Below, one piece after another: positions 43,813-60,746 of a DNA stretch of 62,254 bases. Each line of letters opens with the position of its first letter. Position 1 is the stretch's first letter. The position numbers and the translations under genes were made by a program. The notes beneath the pieces were generated by a model, which was not told where the DNA came from, ran no database searches, and saw only the letters and a list, made by a program, of their open reading frames with translations. Source of the DNA: Candidatus Yanofskybacteria bacterium RIFCSPLOWO2_02_FULL_45_18 (GTDB taxonomy: Bacteria > Patescibacteriota > Minisyncoccia > 2-02-FULL-40-12 > GWA2-44-9); NCBI GenBank assembly GCA_001795795.1, contig MGKV01000007.1:14553-76806 (forward strand), read 5' to 3'.

Positions 43813-44151
43813 ATGGACATAAAAGAATTAAAAAAATTAATAAAAAACGGCGGTTCAGCAGTGATACTTGAAAATGGCGAGCCCTCATTTGTCGTCCTTG
43901 GCTATGAAACTTACAAAAATTTGGACAGTGGAGGCGAGGAGAAGGATATTAAAATAAATCACGCAAATTCTATGCGGCACATTAAGGCGGATACGGATGA
44001 TTATCACAACTCCAATTTTTCCGAAGCGACCAGAGGCAATCTTGAGACCGAAATACTTGAGAAGTTTAATAAGGAGATAGCGGCCATAAAAAGCCAGATT
44101 GAATCGGAAGAGAAAAATTTAATTCAAACCGAAGATTGGCCTGATTTTTAA
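43813..44151 (+). CDS. Hypothetical protein with Phd/YefM-antitoxin-like N-terminus
   Basis: 112-aa ORF. GGSAVILENGEPSFVVLGYETYKNL resembles the Phd/YefM N-domain. No partner toxin ORF. Confidence 0.5.
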   Translation: MDIKELKKLIKNGGSAVILENGEPSFVVLGYETYKNLDSGGEEKDIKINHANSMRHIKADTDDYHNSNFSEATRGNLETEILEKFNKEIAAIKSQIESEEKNLIQTEDWPDF

Positions 44152-44291
44152 AGGACATGTGCGGGGTTGACTTTAACTTATAATTTGCTAAAATACTAAA
44201 ACATACTTATTTTAGTTTCTAGGTTCTAGTTTCTAGGTTTCATCATCCGCGAAAACTATAAGCTACAAGCTATAAACTATAAGCTATTCAG

Positions 44292-45494
44292 ATGGCAGAA
44301 AAATTTGAGAGGACAAAGCCGCATGTAAATGTAGGCACCATTGGCCATGTTGACCATGGCAAAACAACGCTTACCGCGTCGATTTTGCATACTTTAAACA
44401 TGCTTAAAGACGAGGGCTATTCGGCCCGTGTTGAAGCCGTAGACCAGATTGACAACGCGCCGGAAGAAAAAGCCCGCGGTATTACGATTGCCTTGCACCA
44501 CTCTCAATATGAAACTCCGAAAAGACACTATGCCCACATTGATGCTCCCGGTCATGCCGACTATATTAAAAATATGATTACGGGGGCGGCTCAAATGGAC
44601 GGCGCGGTTTTAGTCGTTGCCGCGACTGACGGTCCGATGCCCCAAACTCGCGAGCACATCTTGCTTGCTAGGCAAGTAGGTGTTCCGGCAATTATCGTCT
44701 TCTTAAATAAAGTTGACCAGGTTGATGATCCGGAAATGCTTGATTTGGTTGAGGCCGAGATTAGAGAACTCTTGAATAAATATCAATATCCCGGCGATAC
44801 CACTCCGATTATCCGCGGGTCGGCCTTAAAAGCGCTTGAGTCCAAATCCAAAGAAGATCCGGCTGTTCAGCCGATCAGGCAATTAATTGATGCATTAGAT
44901 AGTTATATTCCTGAACCGCTCAGAGATTACGATAAGCCATTCTTGATGCCGATTGAAGATATTTTTTCAATTGAAGGCCGCGGCACGGTGGTAACTGGCA
45001 AGATTGAGCGCGGAAAAATAAAGTTAAATGATGAAATTGAGATTGTCGGTTTGCGTCCTACAACCAAAACGGTTGTTACCGGCATTGAAATGTTCAACCG
45101 GCAGCTTGACGAAGGCATGGCAGGCGACAACGAGGGAATACTGTTGCGCGGCACCAAGAAAGAGGATGTTGAAAGAGGGCAGGTTTTAGCCAAGCCTAGC
45201 AGTATAACTCCGCATACAGAATTTGAAGCCGAAATTTATGTTTTAACCAAAGAGGAGGGCGGCCGGCATACCCCGTTCTTAAAAGGCTATAAACCGCAAT
45301 TTTACTTTAGGACGACCGATGTAACCGGTGAGACCTTTCTGCCCGAAGGGACCGAAATGGTAATGCCCGGCGACACGGTAACACTAAAAGTAAAATTGAT
45401 TGCTCCTATCGCCATGGAAGAAAAACAGCGGTTCGCCATTAGGGAAGGTGGCAAGACTGTCGGCGCGGGAGCGGTTACCAAAATTATCGCATAA
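44292..45494 (+). CDS. tuf: Elongation factor Tu
   Basis: [18 protein letters not shown] and NKVD motifs. Confidence 0.99.
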
Positions 45495-45557
45495 TAAGCG
45501 CTTGCCCAGCTCTTCTAGAAGGGCCGGGCGATTTGCTCTTTGTAAAGTATCGCAAAT

Positions 45558-45881
45558 ATGGCAAAAAAAGCGGATACCAATCAGAAGATACGGATAAAGC
45601 TTAAAGCATACGATAATAAGATTATTGATAAATCAGCTCGACAGATCATCGAGACGATTGAGCGTTACGGCGTGAAGCCAGTCGGCCCTGTGCCATTGCC
45701 TACTGAAATACGCAAGTATACGGTTAACCGCTCAACATTTATTGATAAAAATTCAAGGGAGCAATTTGAGATGAGAATTCATAAGCGTTTTATTGACATT
45801 CTGTCGCCAACGTCTAAAGTTATTGATGCGCTGATGAATCTGAATTTGCCGTCCGGCGTTGATATAGAAATTAAAATGTAG
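45558..45881 (+). CDS. rpsJ: 30S ribosomal protein S10
   Basis: IRIKLKAYD...GPVPLPT pattern and its position. Confidence 0.96.
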
Positions 45882-46037
45882 GATTATTGTTTCTTTATTC
45901 CCAGCCACAGATCGCTTTGGGGCTGGGGAGTAAGGTAGCAACACCTTAAACAATAATGGTTTTTATTTTATTTAAACCAGTCTAAATACAGTTAGGGTTT
46001 AGCTTTGCGTATAGGCCGGCTAAATCCGGCTTTTAAA

Positions 46038-46625
46038 ATGTCCAAATTCATATTAGCTAAAAAATTATCAATGACTCAAATTTTTGAAGAAGACGGAAGA
46101 GTGGCACCGGTTACTTTGGTTGGCGTTGAACCGAATGTTGTTACTCGCATTAAAACCGTTGGTAAAGACGGTTACCAATCGGTTCAGGTGGGGACGGGAA
46201 GTAAAAAAAACTCCGGCGGCTTTAAATATTTGCGAGAATTTAAGATTACGGAACTAAACGAACAACCGCTGAAAGAGGGGGACAAACTGGATGTTTCTGT
46301 TTTTGAATCCGGAGATATGGTCAGAGTATCCGGCGTAACTAAGGGTAAAGGTTTTGCCGGAGCGGTTAAAAGACATGGATTTAGCGGTATGCCTTCCAGC
46401 CACGGCCACAAATCCGTAAAGAGGCACATCGGCTCTATCGGCCAACGTTTCCCTCAGCACACATTAAAAGGAAAACGCATGGCGGGACATATGGGAAATG
46501 TAAATTTTACTGTCCGCGGGCTGATGATTGCCCGGATTGATAACGATAATCAAATAATCGCAATCAGGGGTGCTGTACCGGGTAATGCCGGTGGTTTGGT
46601 CAAAATTGAGAGCATCAGCAAATAA
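46038..46625 (+). CDS. rplC: 50S ribosomal protein L3
   Basis: KGKGFAG.VKRHGF and GS.G.R..P motifs. Internal ATG at 46038. Confidence 0.95.
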   Translation: MSKFILAKKLSMTQIFEEDGRVAPVTLVGVEPNVVTRIKTVGKDGYQSVQVGTGSKKNSGGFKYLREFKITELNEQPLKEGDKLDVSVFESGDMVRVSGVTKGKGFAGAVKRHGFSGMPSSHGHKSVKRHIGSIGQRFPQHTLKGKRMAGHMGNVNFTVRGLMIARIDNDNQIIAIRGAVPGNAGGLVKIESISK

Positions 46626-46642
46626 TTACCGGGCCAATTATC

Positions 46643-47290
46643 GTGCAAACAAGTTTATATAATCAAAATTGGGAAAAAGTGGGAGAAGTAACTTTGGCGG
46701 AAGATGTTTTTGGCGCAAAAACAAATCAAGATTTGGTTTATCAGGTTGTTACCTCGCAGATGTCTAATCGAAGACAGAATATTGCACACACTAAGACCAG
46801 ATCGGAAACAAGAGGCGGAGGCAAAAAACCTTGGCGCCAAAAAGGCACCGGCAGAGCCAGGCATGGTTCAATCCGTTCGCCGATTTGGAGGGGTGGCGGG
46901 GTTACTTTCGGTCCGTCCAGAGATAAAATTTTTAAAAAGAAAATTAACGAGAAAATGGCGCGAAAAGCCACTGCCGTAGTTTTATCTGAAAAATTGAGGA
47001 GCGATTCTTTGCTGGTTGTTGACAACATAACCCTCAAGGACAACAAAACCAAAGAGATGGCCGAAATTGTGAAGAATATGACTAAAGCGGTTAAGAAAAT
47101 TAAACCCAACGACAGTATCTTGCTGATAACGACCACGCCAGACGAGGGAATTAGGCGGTCTTCTATGAATTTGCCCAGAGTTAATATCGCGGAGGCAAGG
47201 AACATAAATGCCCTTGACTTACTGTCATTCAAATATGCGGTTATTTTGAAAGATGCGGTTGCTGTAATTGCTCAAAACTTAAAACGGTAA
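46643..47290 (+). CDS. rplD: 50S ribosomal protein L4
   Basis: GGGKKPWRQKGTGRARHGS motif. GTG start. Confidence 0.95.
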   Translation: MQTSLYNQNWEKVGEVTLAEDVFGAKTNQDLVYQVVTSQMSNRRQNIAHTKTRSETRGGGKKPWRQKGTGRARHGSIRSPIWRGGGVTFGPSRDKIFKKKINEKMARKATAVVLSEKLRSDSLLVVDNITLKDNKTKEMAEIVKNMTKAVKKIKPNDSILLITTTPDEGIRRSSMNLPRVNIAEARNINALDLLSFKYAVILKDAVAVIAQNLKR

Positions 47291-47296
47291 CAGACG

Positions 47297-47704
47297 TTGA
47301 TGATTAAATTATTTGGCAAAAAAAGAAAAGAAGATAAAACGACAAAGGCGGACAAAGATTTAACTATGCCCGAAACAGTGGCAGAAAAGCGGCCGGTTTT
47401 GGTGATTGACAGCTCCAAGGGCTCTCGGGCTCTCGGGGTCATAAAAGGGATTTATCTTAGCGAAAAGGCCACATTGCTTTCCGGCTATAATCAATATATT
47501 TTCAAAACTTTTGCGAATACCAATAAAAGCGAAGCAGGCAAAATGATAGAAAAACTTTTTAATGTAAAGGTAAAAGCGGTTAAAATATTAAACATGCCGC
47601 AAAAAAGAAAAGATGTCGGAAAACACTCCGGCTTCCGTGCTGGTTTTAAAAAGGCCGTGGTTGTTCTTGAAAAGGGGTATACGATAGAACAAGCCAAACC
47701 GTAA
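47297..47704 (+). CDS. rplW: 50S ribosomal protein L23 (with Lys-rich N-terminal extension)
   Basis: Position. YIFKT....K.E....E.LF.VKV..V pattern in the C-terminal 90 aa. Confidence 0.9.
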   Translation: MMIKLFGKKRKEDKTTKADKDLTMPETVAEKRPVLVIDSSKGSRALGVIKGIYLSEKATLLSGYNQYIFKTFANTNKSEAGKMIEKLFNVKVKAVKILNMPQKRKDVGKHSGFRAGFKKAVVVLEKGYTIEQAKP

Positions 47705-47733
47705 ACAATTTTCAATTTCCATGTATCAATTTT

Positions 47734-47765
47734 CATTGAATTTTCAATGTTACATTGACTCATTG
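47734..47765 (+). repeat. CAATG-hairpin spacer element, copy 3
   Basis: CATTGAATTTTCAATGTTACATTGACTCATTG. Confidence 0.75.
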
Positions 47766-47858
47766 GAAATTGTCCCGGTATCTACTGGTTATAATCAGAA
47801 GAAATCGAGGACTCTCGATAACGAAGTTACCGGAGTAAATTGATAACTGGAAATTTGT

Positions 47859-48683
47859 ATGAAGCAATATAATCCCACAACTCCGTCCAGAAGGCATATG
47901 CAAGGATATGATTTTACCCAACTAAACAAAACGGGTGCTTTCAAGCCGCTTAAAAAGGGCTTCACCCGAGCCGTGGGCAGGAATAATACGGGCAGAATTA
48001 CCAGCTTTCACCGTGGCGGCGGAGTTAAACGCTTATATCGTGGAGTTGATTTTAAACAGGATAAGTTGAACATAGTGGGAAAGGTCATTTCTGTGGAGTA
48101 TGACCCTAACCGTACATCGCGCATTGCACTTTTGGTGTATGTTGACGGAGAAAAGCGTTATATATTGGCTCCGCAGGATCTTAAGGTTGGTGACAAAATA
48201 GTTACGGCAGAAAAAACTGAGATTAAACCGGGGAACCGTATGAAACTTAAGAACATACCCCAAGGAACTCAAGTACACAACGTTGAGTTGTTTCCTGACC
48301 AAGGCGGGAAAATAGTTCGGTCAGCCGGCAGTGCCGCATTAGTTCTTGCCAGCGAGGGGGGTTATGTGCAGTTGGTAATGCCGTCTTCTGAAGTCAGGGT
48401 TATTTCCGGAGAGAGCTTTGCTTCTATTGGCCAGCTTTCAAATGCCGAGCACAATCTTATAAATCTTGGTAAAGCCGGACGTTCAAGATGGCTTGGACGT
48501 CGTCCAAAGGTCAGAGGCACTGCCATGAATCCGGTTGATCATCCGTATGGCGGAGGCGAAGGCAGGCAGGGGCGGGGCACCAGAAGGCCAAAAACCAGAC
48601 ATGGAAAAATAACCGGCGGCAGGAAAACCAGAAATCCCAAAAAAAAATCGAATAAATTTGTTTTAAGGAGAAGGAATAGGTAA
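47859..48683 (+). CDS. rplB: 50S ribosomal protein L2
   Basis: GRNN.GRIT..HRGGG and RG.AMNPVDHP.GGGEG motifs. Confidence 0.98.
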   Translation: MKQYNPTTPSRRHMQGYDFTQLNKTGAFKPLKKGFTRAVGRNNTGRITSFHRGGGVKRLYRGVDFKQDKLNIVGKVISVEYDPNRTSRIALLVYVDGEKRYILAPQDLKVGDKIVTAEKTEIKPGNRMKLKNIPQGTQVHNVELFPDQGGKIVRSAGSAALVLASEGGYVQLVMPSSEVRVISGESFASIGQLSNAEHNLINLGKAGRSRWLGRRPKVRGTAMNPVDHPYGGGEGRQGRGTRRPKTRHGKITGGRKTRNPKKKSNKFVLRRRNR

Positions 48684-48684
48684 C

Positions 48685-48770
48685 AAGAATAATAAGAATA
48701 AGCAGAATTATTAGAATTATAAGGTGCGGCCTGATAATTCCAATAATTCTAAATTCTGATAATTCTAAGT
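48685..48770 (+). repeat. AGAATAATAAGAAT spacer element, copy a
   Basis: AAGAATAATAAGAATAAGCAGAATTATTAGAATTATAAGG... with an internal inverted repeat. Ends 1 nt before the rpsS ATG. Confidence 0.75.
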
Positions 48771-48771
48771 C

Positions 48772-49125
48772 ATGAGCAGAAGTTTAAAAAAAGGTCCATA
48801 TGTAGACCAGCGATTGCTTAAGAAAATAGGCAAGCTTAGGGCTGGAGATAAGGCCGTTGTCAAAACTTGGGCCAGAGCGTCTACCATTGTTCCGGAAATG
48901 ATCGGCTTTACTTTCGGGGTGCATAATGGAAGAATTCACATACCTGTTCTGGTTACCGAAGATATGGTAGGACACAAGCTTGGCGAATTTTCTTTGACAA
49001 AGAAGTTTACCCGGCATGGGGGTCGTATGCAACGTGAGATGGAAGCGGCTCAAAAGCAAAAAGAGATAGAAGCCGCCCAAACCGTAAAAGTGGCAACGAC
49101 GACGCCGGAAGCAGAGAAGAAATAG
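48772..49125 (+). CDS. rpsS: 30S ribosomal protein S19 (C-terminal extension)
   Basis: [11 protein letters not shown] and GHKLGEF motifs. Confidence 0.96.
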
Positions 49126-49190
49126 CCATTAGCCATTAGAAATTGGGCAGAAAATCTCTAAATCCTAATAGCTAAGTCTTAATCACTAAA

Positions 49191-49715
49191 ATGACTGAAG
49201 TATCCGCACAACTTAATAGAATACGATTGGCACCTCGAAAAGTTCGAGCGGTTGCCAATTTGTTAAAAGGCAAAAGTGCCGACAACGCCCTGCGCCAACT
49301 TGAATATCTCATAAAGAAACCGGCCTTGCCTCTTGCCAAACTGATAAAGTCGGCCATTGCTAATGCTGAAAACAACTTCAATATGGTTAGGGAAAATCTT
49401 TATATAAAAAGTTTTATTGTTAACGAAGGGGTGAAATTAAAGCGTTTTAAGCCTAAAGGTTTTGGGCGGGCCGCCATGATCCAGAAGAAAACCAGCTTGG
49501 TAACCTTGGTTTTAGATGAAAAAACCCCCGGTCTCAAAAGGGATAAAAAAGTTTTCCAAGAAGACAAGAAAATTTTAACCAAAGAAGAAGAGGTCCCGAA
49601 AGGTGTTGGGGAGAAAAAACCGGAGATTAAAAGAAAAATCGGACAGAGAAGTTTGATACCGGGGCTAGGGGGACTGAAGAAATTATTTAACAGAAAGACC
49701 ACGGGGGGCTTATAG
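49191..49715 (+). CDS. rplV: 50S ribosomal protein L22 (long Lys-rich C-terminal extension)
   Basis: R.APRKVR.VA.L..GK motif and its position. Confidence 0.93.
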   Translation: MTEVSAQLNRIRLAPRKVRAVANLLKGKSADNALRQLEYLIKKPALPLAKLIKSAIANAENNFNMVRENLYIKSFIVNEGVKLKRFKPKGFGRAAMIQKKTSLVTLVLDEKTPGLKRDKKVFQEDKKILTKEEEVPKGVGEKKPEIKRKIGQRSLIPGLGGLKKLFNRKTTGGL

Positions 49716-49845
49716 GATAATGTTTAATCGTTCAATCCGTTCAATCACTCACATCCGTTCTCTCGTTTTGAACAAATAAAATGATTGAACATCTTGAACA
49801 AGCTAAACCAAGCCTGACTTGGTGAAGCGATAGAACAAAATTGTT

Positions 49846-50481
49846 ATGGGACAAAAAATTTCACCAATTTCATTAAGAATGGGAATTAACAAGGACTGGG
49901 TATCCCATTGGTTTAGCAGTCGTAAATATATTCCCTTTTTGAAAGACGAGGTTAAAATAAGAGATTTTTTCAGGGGGAAGTTGAAAAATATGGGGGTAGA
50001 TCGGATTGAAACAGAACGCGGCACGGACACATTTAATATCACAATTTTTACAGCTCGTCCGGGTTTAATAATCGGCGGAGGAGGTAGCGGCGTTGAAGAA
50101 TTGAAAAAAGCTATCTGCAAGTTGCTAAAAAAGAAAGTCGCGATCAGAATTGAGGTGCATGAGATTAAAACTCCCGAAGCTTCGGCGGCTGTAATGGCCG
50201 AGTCGATTGTTGATCAGATTGAAAAGCGACTTCCCTTTAGAAGGGTGATGAAACAGACGATAAGTAAAATAATGTCCAGCCGGGAAGTTAAGGGTGCCAA
50301 AATAAAAATAGGCGGACGGCTTGACGGGGCTGAAATAGCCAGAGTTGAACATTTGGAGGAAGGCAGTCTGCCATTGCAAACCTTAAGGGCTGATATAGAT
50401 TTTGCCAAAGCTACGGCGCATACAACCTATGGCACCGTAGGGGTGAAAGTGTGGATTTATAAGGGGGAAGTCTTCGAATAA
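49846..50481 (+). CDS. rpsC: 30S ribosomal protein S3
   Basis: MGQKISPISLR, a KH domain and GRL.GAEIAR.E motif. Confidence 0.97.
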   Translation: MGQKISPISLRMGINKDWVSHWFSSRKYIPFLKDEVKIRDFFRGKLKNMGVDRIETERGTDTFNITIFTARPGLIIGGGGSGVEELKKAICKLLKKKVAIRIEVHEIKTPEASAAVMAESIVDQIEKRLPFRRVMKQTISKIMSSREVKGAKIKIGGRLDGAEIARVEHLEEGSLPLQTLRADIDFAKATAHTTYGTVGVKVWIYKGEVFE

Positions 50482-50520
50482 TCTTGCCGCATTTGACATG
50501 TGGCATTTGACCAAGTGTGT

Positions 50521-50548
50521 CAATTGTCAATTGTCAATTGTCAATTGT
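50521..50548 (+). repeat. (CAATTGT)x4 heptamer array, upstream of rplP
   Basis: Four exact tandem units, preceded by CATTTGACATGTGGCATTTGACC at 50490..50512. Confidence 0.95.
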
Positions 50549-50551
50549 TCT

Positions 50552-50959
50552 GTGTTGCAGCCATCGCGAGTAAAACATACTAAAGTTCACGGGGGTAGAT
50601 TGAAAGAAACCACATTGCGCGGGACGACTTTAAGTTTCGGAAGCTTCGGACTTAAAGCGCTGGAAGCTTCTTGGCTAAAAGCCAGTCAGTTGGAATCAGC
50701 TCGTCGAGCCATGACTCGTTTTGTGCAGCGAGGGGGGAAAATCTGGATTAGAGTATTTCCTGACAAGCCTAGAACCGCTAAAAGTTCGGAGGTGGGAATG
50801 GGCGGCGGCCGGGGGGCGCTGTCGCATTGGGTGGTGCCGGTTGAATCAGGTAGGATACTTTTTGAGATAGATGGGTTGCCGGAGGACCAAGCTCGCGAGG
50901 CGCTGCGTTTGGGTGCCCACAAACTGCCCATTAAATGCAGGATAATTAGCCGCAACTAA
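50552..50959 (+). CDS. rplP: 50S ribosomal protein L16
   Basis: A GTG start gives MLQPSRVKHTKVHGGR, matching the uL16 N-terminus. The track N-terminal extension merely reads through the repeat array. Confidence 0.93.
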   Translation: MLQPSRVKHTKVHGGRLKETTLRGTTLSFGSFGLKALEASWLKASQLESARRAMTRFVQRGGKIWIRVFPDKPRTAKSSEVGMGGGRGALSHWVVPVESGRILFEIDGLPEDQAREALRLGAHKLPIKCRIISRN

Positions 50960-51011
50960 CTTGTTCCCGCATCAAGGGACCGATTGGCCCAGCGGCGCGG
51001 GGAGTTGACTT

Positions 51012-51197
51012 ATGAAGAAAAATGAGTTACAAAATAAGGGCCGGAATGAACTATTGTCTTTGTTGGATGAATTAAGGGGCAAGCTTTTACAGCTTGACTT
51101 TGAACGCACAGAGAAGAGGATTAAGGATTCAAGCCAAGTTAAAAAAACAAAACAAGAAATTGCTAGAGCCCTTACGGCTATTAAATCGGCAAAATAA
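51012..51197 (+). CDS. rpmC: 50S ribosomal protein L29
   Basis: 61 aa, helical L..L..EL..LR pattern and its position. Confidence 0.9.
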
Positions 51198-51457
51198 TGA
51201 TTACTGAACACAAAAAAGAAAAAAACGGGCGCATTCTCGACGGCGTTGTCGTATCTGACAAAATGACAAAAACAGTGGTAGTGGAAATTTTGCACTTGAA
51301 ACAACACCCCAAGTATAAGAAATATTTCAAAGTTACCCGACGTTATAAAACGCATGATCCGGAAAGCCGGTACCATGTTGGGGACAAAGTTATAATTCAG
51401 GAAACAAGACCGATATCAAAAGATAAGAGATGGATAGTAGTAAGCAAGGCCGACTAA
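51197..51457 (+). CDS. rpsQ: 30S ribosomal protein S17
   Basis: G.VVSDKM.KT.VV......HP.YKK motif. Confidence 0.95.
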
Positions 51458-51495
51458 TGTATAACATTTGACATGTGACATTTGACCGAATGAGT

Positions 51496-51529
51496 CAATT
51501 GTCAATTGTCAATTGTCAATTGTCAATTG
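51496..51529 (+). repeat. (CAATTGT)x4 plus CAATTG array, upstream of and into the rplN start
   Basis: Preceded by ACATTTGACATGTGACATTTGACC at 51464..51487. The final TTG (51527..51529) is the inferred start codon. Confidence 0.95.
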
Positions 51530-51892
51530 CTACAGCTTCGTTCCATAGTAAATGTTGCAGACAATAGCGGCGCCAAAAAAGTCGGTGTGTTTAAGGTGTT
51601 GGGCGGTTCAAGGAAAGATTTTGCCGAGATAGGCGACACCGTGGTGGTTTCGGTCAAAGTGGCTGAGCCCAGAAAGCTTGTAAAGAAAAAGGATGTCTTG
51701 CGCGCATTAGTGGTTCGTCAGCGGAAACCCTTCAGGCGCAAAGATGGAAGTTATGTCCGTTTTGACGACAATGCGGTTGTTATTCTTGATGGCGTTGAGC
51801 CAAAAGGCGGCAGGATTTTTGGTCCGATTCCGCGTGAGATAAAAGAAAAAGGGTTTAACACGATTGCATCACTGGCGGAGGAAGTGGTCTGA
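51527..51892 (+). CDS. rplN: 50S ribosomal protein L14
   Basis: A TTG start gives MLQLRSIVNVADNSGAKK, matching the uL14 N-terminus. Confidence 0.93.
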   Translation: MLQLRSIVNVADNSGAKKVGVFKVLGGSRKDFAEIGDTVVVSVKVAEPRKLVKKKDVLRALVVRQRKPFRRKDGSYVRFDDNAVVILDGVEPKGGRIFGPIPREIKEKGFNTIASLAEEVV

Positions 51893-51895
51893 TGA

Positions 51896-51980
51896 AAGAA
51901 TAATAAGAATTAACAGAATTATAAGAGTTAGCAGAAGTTGGCCAGATTACTCGCATTATTCTTATACTTCTGCTTATTCC
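51896..51980 (+). repeat. AGAATAATAAGAAT spacer element, copy b
   Basis: AAGAATAATAAGAATTAACAGAATTATAAGAGTTAGCAG... Ends at the rplX ATG. Confidence 0.75.
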
Positions 51981-52286
51981 ATGAAATTAAAAAAGGGAGA
52001 CAATATAATAATGTTAAGCGGAAAAGACAAAGGTAAAACCGGAACAGTGTCGGCTGTTTTGCCGAATTTAAACAAGATGGTGATTGGCGGACTTAACTTA
52101 ATTAAAAAAAATGTGCGGGCGAGAAAACAAGGACAGAAAAGCCAGATAATTTCCAAAGAGAGACCGGTCAGTATATCCAGTGTAGCTCTGATGTGCAAGT
52201 CATGCGGCAAACCAACACGCGTCGGCTTTAGCATTGCGGAAAAAAGCAAAATCCGAATTTGTAAAAAATGCGGAGCCGAAGTTTGA
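51981..52286 (+). CDS. rplX: 50S ribosomal protein L24 with C-terminal CxxC..CxxC zinc-ribbon tail
   Basis: MKLKKGD.V...GKDKGK.G KOW motif. The tail is CKSCGKPTRVGF....ICKKCG. Confidence 0.92.
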   Translation: MKLKKGDNIIMLSGKDKGKTGTVSAVLPNLNKMVIGGLNLIKKNVRARKQGQKSQIISKERPVSISSVALMCKSCGKPTRVGFSIAEKSKIRICKKCGAEV

Positions 52287-52521
52287 TGAGGCGACGCCCC
52301 TCATTAACCCCGCCTCATTTCTGGATGGCGGTCAGCGGATCAGATTGGTGACGGGGTGGAGCGGAAGTTGGATAACTAAATTCAAAATGCAAAAATTAAA
52401 ATGTCCCGACTTCATCGAGGACTCTCGACGGAATCGGAGCAAAATTAATGTCAGTGACAATTCCGCAAGCGGAATTGTCACTTTCCCGAATTTTTAATTT
52501 TTCATTTTAAATTTTATTTCT

Positions 52522-53064
52522 ATGGCCAGATTGCTTGAAAAATATGTGAAAACCGTAAAACCTGCCCTGCAGAAAGAGTTTGGTTTTAAAAATATAATGC
52601 AGATACCGAGGATTGAAAAGGTTGTCATTAACGTCGGGATTGGAAAAATTATCAAAGACGATAAAGCCGTTGATAAGGTTAGAAAAGATCTGGCCCTTTT
52701 ATCGGGCCAAAAAACCATTGCTCGAAAAGCTAAAAAGTCAATCGCCGGTTTTAAAATAAGAGAGGGCATGGAGGTCGGCTATATGGTTACCTTGCGCGGT
52801 AAGAGGATGTATGATTTTATAGATAGGTTGATTTCAATTGCTTTGCCTCGATCAAAAGATTTTCGGGGAATTGATGCCGGAAATTTTGACGAAAGAGGCA
52901 ATCTCAACATTGGCATCAAGGAGCATAACATTTTTCCGGAGATTAGTTACGAAAGCTTAAAAGATATTTTTAGTTTGCAGATTACGGTTGTAACCAAAGC
53001 CCAGAGTCGTGAACAGGCGATTGCCCTGTTGCGCGGCGTTGGGTTCCCATTACAAAAAAGTTAA
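52522..53064 (+). CDS. rplE: 50S ribosomal protein L5
   Basis: NIMQIPRIEKVVIN.G and RGKRMYDFIDRL motifs. Confidence 0.97.
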   Translation: MARLLEKYVKTVKPALQKEFGFKNIMQIPRIEKVVINVGIGKIIKDDKAVDKVRKDLALLSGQKTIARKAKKSIAGFKIREGMEVGYMVTLRGKRMYDFIDRLISIALPRSKDFRGIDAGNFDERGNLNIGIKEHNIFPEISYESLKDIFSLQITVVTKAQSREQAIALLRGVGFPLQKS

Positions 53065-53181
53065 ATATTAAATATCAAAAATCAAAATGACAGATAAAAA
53101 TTCAAAAATAAATAAAATCAGCTCGTTTGTTTTGAGATTTGATTTTTAATTTTTGAATTTGACTGAGTAAAACGAAGGAAC

Positions 53182-53367
53182 ATGCCTAAAAAATCAACAA
53201 TTGCCAGATCAAACAAAAGGCCCAAATTTTCAAGCCGGATAGTGAACAGGTGTTTTATGTGTGGACGAAAAAAAGGATATTTAAGAAAATTTGGTTTATG
53301 CCGTATAGATTTTAGAGAATTAGCTAGCGCTGGCTTGCTTCCCGGAGTAACAAAATCAAGTTGGTAA
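53182..53367 (+). CDS. rpsN: 30S ribosomal protein S14 (short, type Z-like)
   Basis: 61 aa, MPKKS.IA....[24 protein letters not shown]. The fourth Cys is replaced by Asp. Confidence 0.94.
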
Positions 53368-53404
53368 CATACAACCTTTGACACGTGACCCTTGACAGCA
53401 ATGT

Positions 53405-53438
53405 CAAATGTCAATTGTCAATTGTCAATTGTCAATTG
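53405..53438 (+). repeat. CAAATGT plus (CAATTGT)x3 plus CAATTG array, upstream of and into the rpsH start
   Basis: Preceded by CCTTTGACACGTGACCCTTGACAGCAATGTCAA. The final TTG (53436..53438) is the inferred start codon. Confidence 0.95.
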
Positions 53439-53834
53439 GATCCAATCGCCGACATGTTAATAAGGATAAAAAACGCGCAACTGGTTGCGAAAGACCACGT
53501 CGTTTTTCCGTTTTCTAAAATTAAATTTACCATTGCCACGCTGCTTAAAAATAACGGATATGTTTCCGAAGTTAACAAAAGAAAAAGAAAAGCCAAAAAA
53601 ACAGAGCACGATTTTATTGAGATTGTTTTAAAATATTCAAATGGCTTGCCGAGGTTGCAGGGTTTTAAGTTGATAAGCAAACCCTCCCGCAGAATTTATA
53701 TAAAAGCATCTCGGATAAAACCGGTACGTTCGGGATTCGGTATGGCCATTATCTCAACTTCCAAAGGAATTATGTCGTCCAAGGAAGCATGGAAAGAAAA
53801 GTTGGGAGGAGAGCACATATGCGAGGTGTGGTAA
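53436..53834 (+). CDS. rpsH: 30S ribosomal protein S8
   Basis: A TTG start gives MDPIADMLIRIKNAQ, the canonical uS8 N-terminus. Confidence 0.94.
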   Translation: MDPIADMLIRIKNAQLVAKDHVVFPFSKIKFTIATLLKNNGYVSEVNKRKRKAKKTEHDFIEIVLKYSNGLPRLQGFKLISKPSRRIYIKASRIKPVRSGFGMAIISTSKGIMSSKEAWKEKLGGEHICEVW

Positions 53835-53842
53835 GCAAAGAT

Positions 53843-53914
53843 AGAATAATAAGAATTAGTAGAATTATAAGAATTATCGGGACTTTAATCTAATAATTCC
53901 AATAGTTCATAGTT
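53843..53914 (+). repeat. AGAATAATAAGAAT spacer element, copy c
   Basis: AGAATAATAAGAATTAGTAGAATTATAAGAATTATCGG...TAATTCCAATAGTTC. Ends at the rplF ATG. Confidence 0.75.
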
Positions 53915-54460
53915 ATGAGCAAGATCGGCAAAAAACCAATCACAATTCCGCAGGGCGTCGACATCAAAGTCGATGATTCTTCGGTTTTTGCCAAAGGTCC
54001 CAAAGGCGAGATTAGGCGTAATTTGCCAGATATGCTGACTGTTTCGGTGAGTGATGGTTTGGTAACCATAAGTCCGGTCGTTGGTGCTGGCAAGAGAAGC
54101 TCGGCAATGTGGGGTCTTTACCGGTCTTTGGTGCAGAATATGTTAACCGGCGTGGCGAGCGGATTTGAAAAAACCCTTGAATTTCAGGGCGTGGGCTATA
54201 AGGCTAATATCAAAGGCAAGGGACTTGAACTAAGTCTAGGTTATTCTCATCCGATTTTTTACCAAGCTCCGGAGGGTATAAACTTTAGTGTGGAGAAAAA
54301 CAGCATTACCGTTTCCGGTGTTGATAAGGAGTTGGTCGGACAGGTGGCGGCGGATATCAGGTCCAAGCGTAAGCCCGAACCATACAAGGGCAGCGGTATC
54401 CGTTATCGCGGAGAAATTATAAAGAAAAAAGCCGGTAAGAAAGCGGTAGCGACTTCATAA
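53915..54460 (+). CDS. rplF: 50S ribosomal protein L6
   Basis: SKIGKKPI.IP.GV and GVGYKA motifs. Confidence 0.96.
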   Translation: MSKIGKKPITIPQGVDIKVDDSSVFAKGPKGEIRRNLPDMLTVSVSDGLVTISPVVGAGKRSSAMWGLYRSLVQNMLTGVASGFEKTLEFQGVGYKANIKGKGLELSLGYSHPIFYQAPEGINFSVEKNSITVSGVDKELVGQVAADIRSKRKPEPYKGSGIRYRGEIIKKKAGKKAVATS

Positions 54461-54551
54461 CGGCAAATTACAAATTACAGATTCCAAATTCCAAACAAAT
54501 TCCGATGACTGAAGTTTCAGAATTAAACCATTAGAGTTGAATTTAAAAGTT

Positions 54552-54914
54552 ATGGACATAAAGAAAAAACAATTGAATAAGGTAACGAGGCACAAGCGTG
54601 TGCGCGCTAAAATTTATGGTACACCGGGTCGGCCGCGGGTATCGGTCTTTAAAAGCAACCGGCATTTTTATGCGCAGCTGATTGACGATGTTTCGGGTAA
54701 AACATTGACGGCAATAAGCGATTTAACAATATCCAAAGCAAACAAAAAGGGCCGTAACAAGGTCAATATTGCCGGAGAACTGGGTGAATTATTGGGCAAG
54801 AAAGCGAAAGAGCTTAATATCGGCAATGTTGTTTTTGATAAGGGCAGTTTTAAATATCACGGCCGGGTAAGTATTTTTGCTGACGGATTGCGTAAATCGG
54901 GGATTAACGTATGA
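54552..54914 (+). CDS. rplR: 50S ribosomal protein L18
   Basis: RHKRVRAKI.GT..RPR..VF.S..H.YAQ..DD motif. ATG at 54552. Confidence 0.95.
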   Translation: MDIKKKQLNKVTRHKRVRAKIYGTPGRPRVSVFKSNRHFYAQLIDDVSGKTLTAISDLTISKANKKGRNKVNIAGELGELLGKKAKELNIGNVVFDKGSFKYHGRVSIFADGLRKSGINV

Positions 54915-54928
54915 TCTGATTTAATTGA

Positions 54929-55489
54929 ATGGAACAAGAATTAAACAAAACTAGTATTGGGGCCGGATCGAGCGGCGGCCGCCAAACTTTCAAAAGAGGG
55001 CGGCGATTTGGTCGGGGATTTTCCGGTGGAGAGAAACGTTCCGAATATGACCAGAAAGTGTTGGATATTGCCCGAGTGGCGCGGGTGACCAAGGGTGGAA
55101 AAAGATTTAGCTTCCGTGCCACTATTGCAATTGGCGACGGCAAGGGTAGGGTAGGCGTTGGTATCGCAAAAGGAAAAGATGTTGCGCAATCCATACAAAA
55201 AGCCGCCGAACAAGCCAAAAAGAAACTTATTGCCGTAGTAACCGTGAATAATACGATTCCATATCAGGTTGAGGCCAAATACTCCAGCGCGATAGTGTTG
55301 CTAAAACCAGCCAGGGGGGGCGTTAAGGCGGGCGGACCGGTCCGTATAATTACCAAATTGGCCGGCATATCAAGTTTAACCGGCAAATTAATCAGGCGTA
55401 CCAACAACAAGCTGAATATTGCTATGGCCACAATCGAAGCGTTAAAGAAATTAAGGACTCGATCCAAAAATCAAAGCACAAGCGAATGA
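54929..55489 (+). CDS. rpsE: 30S ribosomal protein S5
   Basis: V.RV.KGG.RF.F.A....GD..G.VG.G.GKA motif. Confidence 0.96.
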   Translation: MEQELNKTSIGAGSSGGRQTFKRGRRFGRGFSGGEKRSEYDQKVLDIARVARVTKGGKRFSFRATIAIGDGKGRVGVGIAKGKDVAQSIQKAAEQAKKKLIAVVTVNNTIPYQVEAKYSSAIVLLKPARGGVKAGGPVRIITKLAGISSLTGKLIRRTNNKLNIAMATIEALKKLRTRSKNQSTSE

Positions 55490-55508
55490 TTTTTGGTCAT
55501 CGAACCTT

Positions 55509-55643
55509 ACCCCGCACTTATCAAGGATATGCAGCTTGTTGGTTCCGTGTCAGGATGCTGTATCTAGGGTTTATCCAAATATACCCTGAATCCAGCATCT
55601 TAAACGGCTGCTGTTAAAACCCAATCCTTGATAAGTGCGGGGT
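55509..55643 (+). other. 135-nt extended hairpin at the position normally occupied by rpmD (L30)
   Basis: A 20-bp perfect closing stem ACCCCGCACTTATCAAGGAT/ATCCTTGATAAGTGCGGGGT encloses the nested stems GCAGC/GCTGC, GATGCTG/CAGCATC and AGGGT/ACCCT. Confidence 0.8.
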
Positions 55644-55705
55644 GACGAGTTTTGTAAGCAGTTCGTCTGCTCGCAGACTCACAACTCCTCACTGACAAAA
55701 TCATC

Positions 55706-56179
55706 ATGCAATTACACCAATTACAACCTAATACCTCCAGACGACGGACCAAATATATCGGTCGGGGCGGAAAAAGGGGGACAACCTCGGGTAAGGGCAC
55801 CAAAGGACAGCAATCACGCGCCGGCACCGGAATCAAGCCCGGTTTTCGTGGTGGCGACAATAGGATCTGGCAGCAATTTCCCAAACAGCGCGGAGCTTCT
55901 TCCAAACCGGGCAATGCGCGGCCGCATCACAAGCACCGCTTTTACCAGTTACGGCACGACAAAATGCCAATTTTAAATTTGGCTGACTTTAACCGGTTTA
56001 CCGACGGCGAGGTTGTTACTCCGGCGCTTGTTTTTAGGCAGGGTTTGGTAAACAATATTGATGACGGGGTTAAGGTATTAGCTGATGGCAAGCTTGGTAA
56101 AAAATTAGTCTTTGAAGGATTTGAATTTTCCGATTCCGCCAAAGAAAAAGTGGTCAAATCAGGCTCAACCATCAAATAA
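55706..56179 (+). CDS. rplO: 50S ribosomal protein L15
   Basis: GRGG.RG.TSGKG.KGQ..R.G motif. Confidence 0.95.
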   Translation: MQLHQLQPNTSRRRTKYIGRGGKRGTTSGKGTKGQQSRAGTGIKPGFRGGDNRIWQQFPKQRGASSKPGNARPHHKHRFYQLRHDKMPILNLADFNRFTDGEVVTPALVFRQGLVNNIDDGVKVLADGKLGKKLVFEGFEFSDSAKEKVVKSGSTIK

Positions 56180-57438
56180 TGTCCAAAATCCTACAAATAT
56201 TCCAGCGTCCTGACCTTCGCAAAAAGGTTCTTTATGTTCTGGCCATATTGGTGATTTTTCGTATTGTTGACAACATACCCATTCCTTCGGTAGATCCATT
56301 AAAGTTGAAGGAATTTTTTGCTCAAAATCAATTTTTCGGCTTAATCAGTGCTTTTACCGGCGGTTCCCTGTCAACTCTTTCTATCGGTATGCTTGGTTTG
56401 GGCCCATACATTACGGGTTCCATTATTATGCAGCTTTTGACGATGATTTTTCCTTCGCTGGAGCAGATGTATAAGTATGAGGGTGAAGCGGGGCGGGCAA
56501 AATTCAACCAATATTCCAGAGTACTGACCGTGCCGTTGGCGGCGCTTCAGGGTTATGGGTTTTTGACGCTGTTGGCCCGTCAAGGAATCATAGGTTCTCT
56601 TGGGACTCTTGAATGGGCGACTACAATTTTAGCGGTAATTGCGGGGAGTGTTTTCTTAATGTGGCTGGGGGAACTGATTACCGAGAAAAACGTCGGCAAC
56701 GGCGTTTCCATATTGATTTTGGCGGGTATTGTGGCGCGGTTTCCCACTGATATTAAACAAGCTCTATTTACCTACAGTTCCAGCCAATTATTTACCTATG
56801 TCGGTTTTGTGGCGATTGCCTTGGCGGTGATTGTCGGCGTTATTTATATTTCAGAAGCCCAAAGGAATATTCCGATTAACTATGCCAAGAGAATTAGAGG
56901 GAACAGAGTATTTGGCGGAGTTTCCACCTATCTTCCGATGCGCGTTAACAACGCGGGGGTTATACCCATTATTTTTGCGTTGTCTATTCTTCTTTTCCCG
57001 GGCATGATCGCCAACTTTCTTTCAGGGGCAAGTGTCCCCGTTGTTTCCCAAATTGCAACCTCGGTAGCGGCTTTTCTTCAATCCCAAGTTTGGTACTCCA
57101 TTTTTTACTTTATCTTGGTTTTTCTTTTCACCTACTTTTATACCGCTGTTACCTTTGACCCCAAATCAATATCTGAGAATATCCAAAAACAGGGTGGCTA
57201 TATTCCCGGTATCCGGCCTGGCCCGATGACAGCCCAATTTCTCAATCATTTGCTGAATCGTGTTACGCTGGTTGGCGCTTTGTTTTTGGGTCTGATCGCG
57301 GTTATGCCAAACATTGTCCGCGGCTTTACGGGCATCACATCCTTTACGGTTGGGGGCACCTCTATTTTAATCGTTGTTTCAGTGGCGTTGGAAATTATGA
57401 AACAATTGGACGCTCAGCTTAGTATGTATCAATACTAA
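56179..57438 (+). CDS. secY: Preprotein translocase subunit SecY
   Basis: 419 aa, 10 TM helices, LG..PYI..SII.QL and GGYIPGIRPG motifs. Confidence 0.97.
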   Translation: MSKILQIFQRPDLRKKVLYVLAILVIFRIVDNIPIPSVDPLKLKEFFAQNQFFGLISAFTGGSLSTLSIGMLGLGPYITGSIIMQLLTMIFPSLEQMYKYEGEAGRAKFNQYSRVLTVPLAALQGYGFLTLLARQGIIGSLGTLEWATTILAVIAGSVFLMWLGELITEKNVGNGVSILILAGIVARFPTDIKQALFTYSSSQLFTYVGFVAIALAVIVGVIYISEAQRNIPINYAKRIRGNRVFGGVSTYLPMRVNNAGVIPIIFALSILLFPGMIANFLSGASVPVVSQIATSVAAFLQSQVWYSIFYFILVFLFTYFYTAVTFDPKSISENIQKQGGYIPGIRPGPMTAQFLNHLLNRVTLVGALFLGLIAVMPNIVRGFTGITSFTVGGTSILIVVSVALEIMKQLDAQLSMYQY

Positions 57439-57474
57439 CGCATAATAAAACCGCCTAGCCCGAAGAAGATTAGG
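57382..57474 (+). repeat. 93-bp direct repeat, copy 1 (last 19 secY codons, stop, and 5' half of the terminator)
   Basis: Matches 58697..58789 at 92 of 93 positions (T at 57427 versus C at 58742). Confidence 0.97.
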
Positions 57475-57497
57475 GCTGTGGGCGGTTTTATTATGCG
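57439..57497. terminator. Long bidirectional terminator hairpin after secY
   Basis: CGCATAATAAAACCGCC...GGCGGTTTTATTATGCG with an inner TAGCCC..GGGCT stem. Confidence 0.85.
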
Positions 57498-57519
57498 CGC
57501 ATTCTTAGGGATTCTAAAT

Positions 57520-57627
57520 TTTGGATTGCTTCTGCGTTACCACTGCACTTCTCGCTCGCCGTACTTTTAGTACACCTCCTCACAATGCTCAATTACGTTT
57601 CGACCTTGGTGAAGCTGGGGAGTTTTA
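57520..57627. repeat. ~110-nt cassette leader motif, copy B
   Basis: Colinear anchors with 24688..24796. Followed by TATAAT at 57639..57644. Confidence 0.55.
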
Positions 57628-57850
57628 GCGTTCCGGTGTATAATAGATGCCCTAAAATCTCAGCCAATTATGGGGTTGCATATTGAGCTATTCTATGCTG
57701 TAATGATAGATATAGAGCCTTTAAAATGCTGTGGCAAAACCAATCTGGTGGAGCCTAAATTCCATAAGGAAGCAGCAAATGTTCCGTTCAAATCCTTCCT
57801 CGGATAAGAGGAAAATGAAAATGCGCAAGGAAGCGCAAGGAGATAAGGCC

Positions 57851-58546
57851 ATGAGTACTGAGTTTGCATCTGCCGGCTTCACTGCCGGTCAGCTCAACGC
57901 CATCGTTAAGAAGCTTGGTGGCGAAGAGAGCGGGAGACAGTTTCTCCGTGGTGGCCTGACGGTCAGTTACCAGAAGCTGGCGCAGTTTGTCGGCTTAGAC
58001 GGAAAGGTCACTTTGGAGAATTTCATGAAATGTGTGACCAGCTGGCGCGAGCAAGATGGCGTCATATGTTTCAGCGTCACTTCCGATGGGACGACTGGTC
58101 CCCAGTGGGTTGAGCGTCTCAAGAAGAAAGGTTTTCAGCTCTCGAAGTGGGCCAAGGACGTTTTAAACTCAAAAGATTTCCAGCCCACAAACGGAGTTAC
58201 GACCGAAATTGCGGTTCTGAAGGGGATGCTGTTTGAGGATGACGATCGTATCACCAAGAAAATCCGCGCTGAAGCCAACCGCCGCAAGTTTACCAAGCCT
58301 AATGCTGAAGTTGCTTGCCTGATACGCGAAATGTTCACGGATGAGGAGATTGAAGCCATGGGTTTGGTGTGGATTACTACCATGCACGAACCCATCAAGG
58401 ATTCTGATGACGATCCGCACCTCCTCATTGTGTACCGCGACGTCAGTGGTCGCTGGTTGTACGCGTATTACGACGAGCCTGACTACTTGTGGAATCGTGA
58501 CTTTGGGTTCGCATTCGTTGTCCCGCAAGTTAGTCCTCAAGACTAA
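57851..58546 (+). CDS. Hypothetical protein (231 aa) carried by the secY-adk insertion
   Basis: AAGGAG 7 nt upstream of the ATG at 57851 (inside track ORF 57731..58546). C/G-ending codon preference. Aromatic C-terminal module ...GRWLYAYYDEPDYLWNRDFGFAFV. Confidence 0.75.
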   Translation: MSTEFASAGFTAGQLNAIVKKLGGEESGRQFLRGGLTVSYQKLAQFVGLDGKVTLENFMKCVTSWREQDGVICFSVTSDGTTGPQWVERLKKKGFQLSKWAKDVLNSKDFQPTNGVTTEIAVLKGMLFEDDDRITKKIRAEANRRKFTKPNAEVACLIREMFTDEEIEAMGLVWITTMHEPIKDSDDDPHLLIVYRDVSGRWLYAYYDEPDYLWNRDFGFAFVVPQVSPQD

Positions 58547-58583
58547 GATTCTTGGAACTTTTGTTCCTTTGATCTTAGTCCTT

Positions 58584-58626
58584 AGCCCCATTCCGGGCCG
58601 CCAGCTGGCGGAATCGGAATGGGGCT
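58584..58626 (+). terminator. Strong stem-loop after the cassette ORF
   Basis: AGCCCCATTCCG...CGGAATGGGGCT (12 bp) with an inner CCGCC-AGCT-GGCGG. Confidence 0.7.
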
Positions 58627-58696
58627 AAAATTTTGCATTAAAATTGGTAGATGTGGATTTTGTGTATACATGCCACCGGCTACGGCTTGGGATAGC

Positions 58697-58789
58697 GTGG
58701 CGTTGGAAATTATGAAACAATTGGACGCTCAGCTTAGTATGCATCAATACTAACGCATAATAAAACCGCCTAGCCCGAAGAAGATTAGG
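58697..58789 (+). repeat. 93-bp direct repeat, copy 2 (pseudo secY 3' end, lacks the 3' half of the terminator)
   Basis: See copy 1. Confidence 0.97.
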
Positions 58790-59017
58790 TTGGATGCCCT
58801 GCTGGAAAATCAGGAGCTCATCCCCGAGTCCTGGAAGAAAGATGAGCAAGGCAACACTCGCTATATATTTTTCTGGGGCACCATCTATCGCCGCGGCTCC
58901 GGTGGCCGCCTATATGTCCGCTCTCTGTGCTTCCACGATGGCGGGTGGTTCTGGTACTGCATCTGCCTTGACTACGACTTCTGTGGCCTCTACCCGGCAG
59001 CTGTCTCCGCAAGTTGA
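58790..59017 (+). pseudogene. 5'-truncated gene fragment abutting repeat copy 2
   Basis: The open frame begins exactly at the repeat boundary, with no SD or ATG. Encodes ...LIPESWKKDEQGNTRYIFFWGTIYRRGSGGRLYVRSLCFHDGGWFWYCICLDYDFCGLYPAAVSAS. Confidence 0.55.
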
Positions 59018-59073
59018 TCTGGTTTTTAGCACCTGGACTCATTGATTTTTGTCCTTGAATTCATTGGTGCTTG

Positions 59074-59097
59074 GCCCGCGCTTTTCGCGGGCTTTTT
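59074..59097 (+). terminator. Rho-independent terminator
   Basis: GCCCGCG-CTTT-TCGCGGGC followed by T5. Confidence 0.8.
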
Positions 59098-59950: not shown

Positions 59951-59953
59951 ACA

Positions 59954-60721: not shown

Positions 60722-60746
60722 TTTCCACAGGTTATAGACATATCTA

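Follow-up and report, generated by a model that had tools for sequence, protein, structure and literature searches.

Long spacers in the S10-spc ribosomal-protein cluster of a Yanofskybacteria genome are probably, for the most part, small fold-back repeat elements

Few gene arrays of bacteria are as conserved or as tightly packed as the S10-spc cluster, and the stoichiometric output of its genes is thought to rest on short, coupled junctions. The window analysed here, 62,254 nucleotides of contig MGKV01000007.1 (positions 14,553 to 76,806), comes from Candidatus Yanofskybacteria bacterium RIFCSPLOWO2_02_FULL_45_18, an ultra-small groundwater bacterium whose genome (G000; 627 kb in 23 contigs) carries the cluster with long spacers between most of its genes. 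Re-derivation from stop-to-start coordinates returned the 15 long spacers listed in an earlier, sequence-only reading (156, 154, 88, 65, 130, 70, 52, 69, 88, 235, 117, 68, 80, 91 and 216 nt, in gene order from rpsJ-rplC to rpsE-rplO) and its five tight junctions (17, 9, -1, 14 and -1 nt for rplC-rplD, rplD-rplW, rpmC-rpsQ, rplR-rpsE and rplO-secY). The description of the spacers as non-coding, full of repeats and hairpins, grouped in recurring families and reaching starts that lack a Shine-Dalgarno (SD) sequence was upheld. Our analysis suggests that 13 of the 15 are probably small non-coding fold-back repeat elements, tolerated copy-pasted DNA rather than operon-specific regulators, and that the other two are ancestral.

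The shortened starts adopted for these genes are correct, the products of rplN and rplP beginning M-L-Q and that of rpsH M-D-P at the aligned start position of relatives. The window spacers contain no open reading frame (ORF), and in many relatives the repeat words carry stop codons in all frames, so that such arrays must be non-coding. The spacers are identical across five independent public assemblies of the same strain, which rules out an assembly artefact. Exact-protein matches came from the same strain only, with three to four coding single-nucleotide polymorphisms (two assemblies also have N positions) and no difference within the spacers, a divergence too small to inform, and a metagenome scan for close relatives returned none above 72% RplE identity. 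We give almost no credence to an artefact, be it wrong starts that hide coding sequence or misassembled repeats, even though public annotations of this strain disagree on where genes begin: L16 is called with 119, 135 or 153 amino acids and L14 with 101, 121 or 128, and the starts of L18 and S3 are also inconsistent. Arrays such as (GTCAATT)n are open in all frames and mislead gene-start prediction, so these inconsistent calls are a practical consequence of the spacers. Rfam at E<=1 over 44000-62254 gave no match in any spacer, be it to a ribosomal-protein leader, a ribozyme or another family, and a scan with sigma-70 promoter and intrinsic-terminator consensus found no excess and no plus-strand terminator in the spacers, which excludes ordinary promoters or terminators as their content.

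Most of the spacers fold back on themselves, 11 of the 15 at z<=-1.8 relative to dinucleotide-type shuffles and rpsE-rplO at z=-10.3. The GTTCAATC/TTGAAC words reported earlier are present at 49730-49800; the hairpin GTGACAATTCCGC/GCGGAATTGTCAC is present as well, at 52454-52481, but what had been described as a 12-bp stem with an AAGC loop is a 13-bp stem with a CAAG loop once its centre opens. There are at least three families within the window, plus composite ones, and at least eight different words in the window alone. The general plan appears to be (word)n - loop - (complementary word)n, with words of 7-9 nt and a few composite families; 3' arrays are perfect tandems and 5' arms imperfect. 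Family A (rpsC-rplP, rpsQ-rplN, rpsN-rpsH) pairs a 5' arm CATTTGA-CATGTGA-CATTTGAC with a 3' arm (GTCAATT)4-5. Two of its copies end in GTCAA followed by TTG, so that the TTG start continues the repeat, and the family recurs with the same ending in two distant genomes, at rpsQ-rplN (L108) and rpsE-rplO (L110). Family B (rplB-rpsS, rplN-rplX, rpsH-rplF) is a hairpin of AGAATTATA-type 9-mers, the rplB-rpsS stem beginning 3 nt past the stop and finishing 5 nt ahead of the ATG; a hairpin of this type also lies at C14:51605-51699 of the source genome, directly upstream of the RNase III gene (C14:51164-51556, minus strand).

The CAAAAT/ATTTTG family accounts for rplE-rpsN and part of rplX-rplE. The rplE-rpsN element has relatives in nine other genomes (9 spacers in total, spread over 5 different junctions), and the rplX-rplE spacer, which folds as a whole at z=-4.2, has family copies at C17:15311, C18:13571 and C19:10428. 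The TCGAGGACTCTCGA module is shared by two window spacers, the rplW-rplB element belongs to a 12-copy genome-wide family, and the rpsS-rplV junction carries the same word class, TAGCCATTAG/CTAATGGCTA, in two relatives, G004 and G024. Family D, at rpsE-rplO, matches 14 places, in six of the 41 related genomes: two in the source genome, seven in G008, two in G020, one each in G004 and G011, and a weak one (E about 0.01) in G007. The 65-nt tail of the rpsE-rplO copy (GACGAGTTTTGTAAGCAG..CTCACTGACAAAATCATC) is conserved and flush with the ATG, and the tail abuts the start codon in 12 of 12 distinct copies read, ahead of rplO, rplP, rpsC, rplF, rpsD and other genes. Such varied positions point to a dispersed element and exclude the idea that this spacer is what remains of the L30 gene, which is missing here. 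Different genera carry families A, D, CAAAAT and CCCGTTAGAA..TTCTAACGGG at different junctions.

The comparison set consisted of 20 genomes from other genera of the same family, 21 with the window genome. As had been claimed, the junctions are longer than usual, with a median of 70 nt in the window against 1-16 nt in 14 packed genomes; medians reach 46-102 nt in five expanded genomes, and one intermediate genome (31 nt) was counted as expanded, making seven with the window genome. Among 53 non-redundant loci, metagenome contigs included, 24 have at least five expanded junctions. The elements are lacking in roughly half of the related genera and present in the remainder, where the words differ: the expanded relatives show the same architecture built from ATGGAAY/ATCCATA, ATTACGA/ATACGTA or AAAGTTCAT/AACTTTAT, and a 105-180-nt element, CCCGTTAGAAG...CTTCTAACGGG, that always adjoins the ATG. 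To judge from sequence comparison, elements are gained and lost even within a genus. G004 and G024, members of one genus, differ in element presence or absence at no fewer than eight orthologous junctions (>=8) and in one array by exactly one 7-nt unit, and in several of the copies compared the stop of the upstream gene is the TAG inside CCCGTTAGAAG. Conservation in relatives, proposed earlier as a check, thus holds for the fold-back word-array architecture, which recurs, and for the repertoire of families, and fails for the sequence, which is almost never kept. In genomes at 60-90% coding identity, no more than 15 of the 2769 orthologous spacer pairs reach >=85% identity, and at ~85% coding identity none of 22 does, which argues against sequence-specific regulators. 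The rpsS-rplV and rpsN-rpsH spacers of G024 (L033) and G004 (L037) are, by contrast, 100% and 97% identical in genomes whose coding DNA is 77% identical and whose third codon positions are 56% identical, and this suggests recent spread or exchange between lineages and not neutral descent.

The spacers described for the S10-spc cluster in the sequence-only reading are not peculiar to it, as the whole genome carries them. With crude ORF calls, same-strand gaps have a median of 56-58 nt and 53% exceed 50 nt; of the same-strand gaps of 40-200 nt (n=197), 46% fold at z<-2, a level reached by 6% of coding controls of the same length. In 24 of these 197 gaps there are tandem repeats with a period of 5-7 nt, in most cases 7; in the window, the direct-repeat family D1 has period 7 and 4-5 units. 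The top-scoring gaps elsewhere contain the same word-array hairpins, on many contigs, and such elements are also found between convergent genes. Even the 23S rRNA gene has an insert of the same build as the rplE-rpsN spacer (Table 1). A second insert of ~200 nt (61062-61260) lies right behind the first 12 nt of the 23S rRNA and is closed by a 17-bp stem, TTGGAAGTCGTAACCAA / TTGGTTACGACTTCCAA.

Two of the long spacers require a different explanation, and to that extent their earlier description as repeat fillers has to be withdrawn: covariation in the one, and a promoter in packed relatives of the other, mark rpsJ-rplC and part of rplX-rplE as ancestral regulatory spacers. The rpsJ-rplC spacer is 154-1200 nt long in every relative, the packed ones included, and the window copy (156 nt) is a shortened version of a 240-296-nt form. 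Compensatory changes affect 13 of 21 pairs in an alignment of the P1 hairpin and 17 of 40 in the full leader, which has no Rfam match. It is, as far as sequence and covariation can tell, an ancestral, conserved, attenuator-like leader and no repeat element. It resembles the leader through which L4 attenuates the S10 operon of E. coli (cf. Fu et al. 2013, PMC3616713) in being a structured RNA with a terminator-like hairpin that heads the L3-L4 genes, but it sits behind rpsJ instead of ahead of it and shares no sequence or Rfam similarity with it. The rplX-rplE junction (compared in L031-L050) measures 33-92 nt in 11 of the 14 packed relatives and 1-11 nt in the other three. In most of those 11 the rplE ATG is preceded, at a distance of about 12 nt, by an extended -10 promoter with the sequence TGTGTATAAT or a close variant of it, and this predicted promoter would place the operon boundary of the family before rplE and not before rplN, where it lies in E. 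coli. This spacer thus appears to be an ancestral operon boundary that was later invaded by a CAAAT-type element of the CAAAAT family. Further upstream, in the tuf-rpsJ spacer (45495-45557), a G+C-rich hairpin (z=-2.2) precedes a TTGTAAAG motif, which a relative shares; these are probably the tuf terminator and the S10 promoter region.

Table 1. Long spacers of the S10-spc cluster, their component elements and the related 23S rRNA insert, in window coordinates
Feature	Position	Strand	Content
rpsJ-rplC spacer	45882..46037	+	P1 hairpin closed by CUUUA/UAAGG; terminator-like hairpin GGCCGGCTAAATCCGGC+TTTT just ahead of rplC ATG
rplW-rplB spacer	47705..47858	+	composite fold-back; outer arms 47714-47732 / 47837-47855; CAATTTTC/CATTGA word arrays; z=-3.75; inverted repeat I21
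rplW-rplB inner hairpin	47805-47818	+	TCGAGGACTCTCGA, inside the composite element
rplB-rpsS spacer	48684..48771	+	family B hairpin; 5' arm of 9-nt words AGAATAATA/AGAATTATT, 3' arm ATAATTCYA; z=-5.4; direct-repeat family D2, inverted repeat I13
rpsS-rplV spacer	49126..49190	+	CCATTAG words, 3' arm decayed; weak fold, z=-1.2
rplV-rpsC spacer	49716..49845	+	GTTCAATC / TTGAAC word-array hairpin and small hairpin CCAAGCCTGACTTGG; z=-4.4
rpsC-rplP spacer	50482..50551	+	family A; 5' arm CATTTGA-CATGTGG-CATTTGAC, 3' arm (GTCAATT)x4 up to GTG start; direct-repeat families D1/D3; z=-2.65
rplP-rpmC spacer	50960..51011	+	52-nt hairpin CCCGC...GCGGGG, 63% G+C, no word repeats; z=-1.3
rpsQ-rplN spacer	51458..51526	+	family A; (GTCAATT)n ends ...GTCAA, then TTG start of rplN
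rplN-rplX spacer	51893..51980	+	family B hairpin; D2, I3; z=-2.3
rplX-rplE spacer (52287..52521), 5' module	52287-52373	+	G+C-rich hairpin; BLAST match at same junction in L037, L102
rplX-rplE spacer, 3' element	52374-52521	+	CAAAAT/ATTTTG-word composite; holds TCGAGGACTCTCGA hairpin 52415-52428 and 13-bp hairpin 52454-52481
rplE-rpsN spacer	53065..53181	+	CAAAAT/ATTTTG word-array hairpin, 21% G+C
rpsN-rpsH spacer	53368..53435	+	family A; ends ...GTCAA, then TTG start of rpsH; z=-3.8
rpsH-rplF spacer	53835..53914	+	family B hairpin; D2, D4, I14; z=-1.9
rplF-rplR spacer	54461..54551	+	CAAATTA/CAAATTC arrays, essentially one-armed, almost no hairpin; z=+1.0
rpsE-rplO spacer	55490..55705	+	family D; 135-nt rod hairpin, 20-bp perfect base 55509-55528 / 55624-55643
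23S rRNA gene insert	61404-61546		143 nt; CAAAAT/ATTTTG heptamer arms; G+C clamp GCGCCGC../..GCGGCG

The small elements of the other 13 spacers would have colonised junctions that were originally <=10 nt long, spreading by a copy-and-paste process for which two agents could be considered, a co-occurring Y1/RAYT-like transposase (RAYT, REP-associated tyrosine transposase; REP, repetitive extragenic palindromic sequence) and a PF05635 element. In G024 and G004 a PF05635 ORF (129.7 bits), with smpB and an HtrA-like protease gene as neighbours in G024, is bracketed by inverted arms made of the words TAGCCATTAG/CTAATGGCTA and AGAACTTAG/CTAAGTTCT, as in the rpsS-rplV and rpsN-rpsH spacers of the same genomes. 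These shared arms mark the spacer hairpins as gene-less versions of a larger arm-ORF-arm element, and the window elements, judged by their build, are gene-less relatives of this PF05635-carrying element and not strict members of it. PF05635 gives strong hits in 5 of the 7 expanded genomes, compared with 2 of the 14 packed ones. Orphan ORFs of the neighbouring str operon were also considered as cargo and excluded, as they lack flanking inverted arms.

Every one of the 7 expanded genomes has a Y1_Tnp (IS200/RAYT-like) gene, as do 2 of the 14 packed ones, a split with a hypergeometric probability of about 3e-4, or 0.02 inside the clade that holds all expanded genomes; related genomes are not independent, and two sister pairs on the tree show the contrast. 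The source genome has a single RAYT-like Y1 gene (C15:111-785, L054), which encodes 224 amino acids with an HWH motif and YVERNALRAKLV and whose only NCBIfam match is NF047646, the REP-associated tyrosine transposase, at 66 bits against a cut-off of 80 bits. Upstream of this gene, at a distance of about 26 nt, an 86-nt repeat ends whose CCCCGCAC/GTGCGGGG hairpin is similar to the family D base. Its other copy lies at C12:5640-5729, and the assembly breaks there, as the identical repeat ends two contigs. Most of the Y1 genes of relatives (L069-L081) are bracketed by matching G+C-rich hairpins, with a DnaA-box-like TGTGGATAA beside the hairpin in G011, G013, G024 and G004.

Once inserted, the arms could lengthen through replication slippage, as no MutS was found in the lineage (0 of 41 genomes of the order). 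The loss of MutS does not by itself discriminate as a cause of expansion, as packed genomes also lack it. Two features may explain why the inserts are tolerated. The family does not appear to use SD sites, and self-folding would leave both the stop of the gene before and the start of the gene behind no more than about 5-10 nt from the helix base. Folding would restore stop-start proximity and a terminating ribosome would have to melt the helix, so translational coupling could survive the insertion. A palindrome of >=12 bp is present in 87 of 110 expanded spacers, running in the median from 5 nt past the stop to 10 nt ahead of the start. The minimum-free-energy "unpaired tail" was dropped as evidence of a selected geometry, being only weakly above shuffles (single domain in 76% vs 49%). 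As for the SD sites, no SD-like motif precedes 19 of the 21 starts in the window, and no ribosomal-protein cluster of the family, packed or expanded, shows SD motifs. The sequence-only reading was correct that the spacers run to the start without an SD sequence, but the spacers are not the reason: the lack is family-wide and extends to relatives with 1-10-nt junctions, while the anti-SD is intact (the 16S rRNA 3' end is a canonical CCTCC, and 10-18% of crude ORFs have a strong SD). Some elements may even supply a TAG stop or a TTG start, and elements would survive wherever a self-folding insert is harmless, in operon junctions, in rRNA helices or in other intergenic DNA.

Several findings weigh against the view that the 13 spacers are tolerated, copied DNA. 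[quoted passage not shown] The families are small, as sequence clustering gathered only 49 of 398 spacers, in 17 families of 2-12 copies. The source genome has only a truncated PF05635 copy, we know of no transposase activity for PF05635, and the Y1 genes of relatives are flanked by their own G+C-rich hairpins and not by the spacer words. The closeness of stop and start is partly trivial, as any insert in a 10-nt junction adjoins both codons and shuffles give short tails too. The near-identical spacers of the diverged G024 and G004 hint at function or at recent exchange. Across the 53 loci, TTG or GTG starts follow 56 of 315 expanded junctions (18%) against 8 of 579 packed ones (1.4%), an odds ratio of 15, and all copies read of the family D and CCCGTTAGA elements end directly at the ATG, at a distance of exactly 0 nt.

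This strong enrichment of non-ATG starts and these flush ends are also what would be expected if the hairpins and word arrays were selected translation devices of an organism without SD sites. A stop-start helix could enforce translational coupling, RNase III could cut at the helix base to leave near-leaderless mRNAs, or A/U-rich heptamer arrays could be where S1 or a protein of the cold-shock type docks, a role proposed for the TAACTGA repeats that stand in an analogous position just upstream of starts lacking a ribosome-binding site (RBS), ribosomal-protein genes included (MacGregor 2015, PMC4679880). The architecture recurs without its sequence, arrays reach the start codon, several copies have a TAG stop within the 5' closing arm, and rnc, for RNase III, is encoded in the source genome. 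The idea is also kept alive by an excess of TAG stops at expanded junctions (27% vs 9.5% at packed ones, 53 loci) and by uneven junction occupancy, from 29% (rpmC-rpsQ) to 83% (rpsQ-rplN; p=0.0017). We nevertheless consider it unlikely, because in about half of the relatives these genes are expressed from junctions of 1-10 nt that hold no element, because presence and absence vary within one genus, and because the same elements lie between convergent genes, in the 23S rRNA and around a cargo ORF. The mismatches point the same way: on the sense strand those that weaken an RNA helix prevail, A.C exceeding G.U in 41 spacers vs 19 (p=0.006; the spacers are A/C-rich), which speaks against selection for RNA helix stability. 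A bolder version, in which the elements are portable intercistronic cassettes and constitute the translation-initiation architecture of an SD-less lineage of the Candidate Phyla Radiation (CPR), seems to us quite unlikely. If it were true, the helix would carry the stop in its 5' arm and abut or supply the start codon, initiation downstream, even at TTG or GTG, would depend on the helix being melted by the upstream ribosome or on trimming by RNase III that leaves the mRNA nearly leaderless, and this would account for non-ATG starts being in 13-fold excess and for the ends being exactly flush.

The spacers could also have arisen without any mobility, growing in place through heptamer slippage and palindrome extension by template switching in a genome without mismatch repair. 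The failure to find MutS, the difference of exactly one 7-nt unit between G004 and G024, the contrast between perfect tandem 3' arrays and imperfect 5' arms, and the slippage explanation cited for a heptamer excess (PMC4692102) would all fit. However, packed genomes equally lack MutS, whole composite units (arm-loop-arm, or the 65-nt tail of family D) stand nearly unchanged at unrelated junctions and in other genera, and identical spacers are shared by genomes with 56% third-position identity. Growth in place as the sole process is thus very unlikely in our opinion, and the spread of small fold-back elements by copying is the reading that we favour.

The elements resemble several known kinds of repeat. 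Literature searches turned up no description of such elements in CPR ribosomal-protein operons. Intervening sequences of 23S rRNA with a PF05635 ORF, reportedly found in Leptospira, Coxiella and Xanthomonas, are similar in being palindromic inserts with a long stem, with or without a small four-helix-bundle ORF (Pfam 23S_rRNA_IVP), and the 23S rRNA gene of the window has an insert of the same class. The classical ones lie in rRNA helices, whereas those described here lie between protein-coding genes of an operon, and to our knowledge heptamer-array arms are not part of their description. REP/REPIN sequences (REPINs being inverted doublets of REP) and their RAYT transposases (Bertels & Rainey 2011, PMC3116915; PMC3337134) offer extragenic hairpin-forming inverted doublets of 60-120 nt and a co-occurring Y1 gene. 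There, one to few families have tens to hundreds of near-identical copies and the RAYT gene is flanked by the same REP, whereas here families have 2-12 copies and arms made of word arrays. By inspection, the GTAG or CGTC end tag of REP (PMC3733652) is lacking in families A, B and others, CGTC being present only in relatives' copies of family D. The REP/REPIN-RAYT model therefore fits in shape and in the co-occurring Y1, and fails in copy number and end tags, a cognate link with the Y1 gene being no more than possible.

The other two parallels concern heptamers. In Xanthomonas, (GGGAATC)n arrays include 70-75 cases of two convergent arrays able to form stem-loops (Rehm et al. 2015, PMC4692102), and resemble the present elements in their intergenic tandem 7-nt units, their inverted pairs and a length and sequence that vary widely between close species. 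They consist, however, of one G-rich, quadruplex-forming word per genome, untied to starts or ribosomal-protein operons, whereas here many A/T-rich words are in use and elements fill entire stop-to-start junctions. The TAACTGA direct repeats of marine Beggiatoaceae, some Cyanobacteria and Bacteroidetes (MacGregor 2015, PMC4679880) are closer in position, with two to six heptamers a few nt upstream of RBS-less starts, ribosomal-protein operons included, and 7-nt indel steps between strains. There the word is single, nearly always direct (with one inverted case) and chosen to be unstructured, unlike the many words found here, which usually have a complementary array and form a hairpin.

Our results would tie together three poorly explained repeat phenomena, namely heptamers near starts, REP-like hairpins, and rRNA intervening sequences with PF05635. 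They also indicate that whole CPR genera tolerate self-folding inserts of 60-230 nt at up to 17 of 19 junctions of this cluster, while sister genera keep 1-10 nt, and so offer a natural experiment on how much junction geometry weighs when Shine-Dalgarno pairing is unused.

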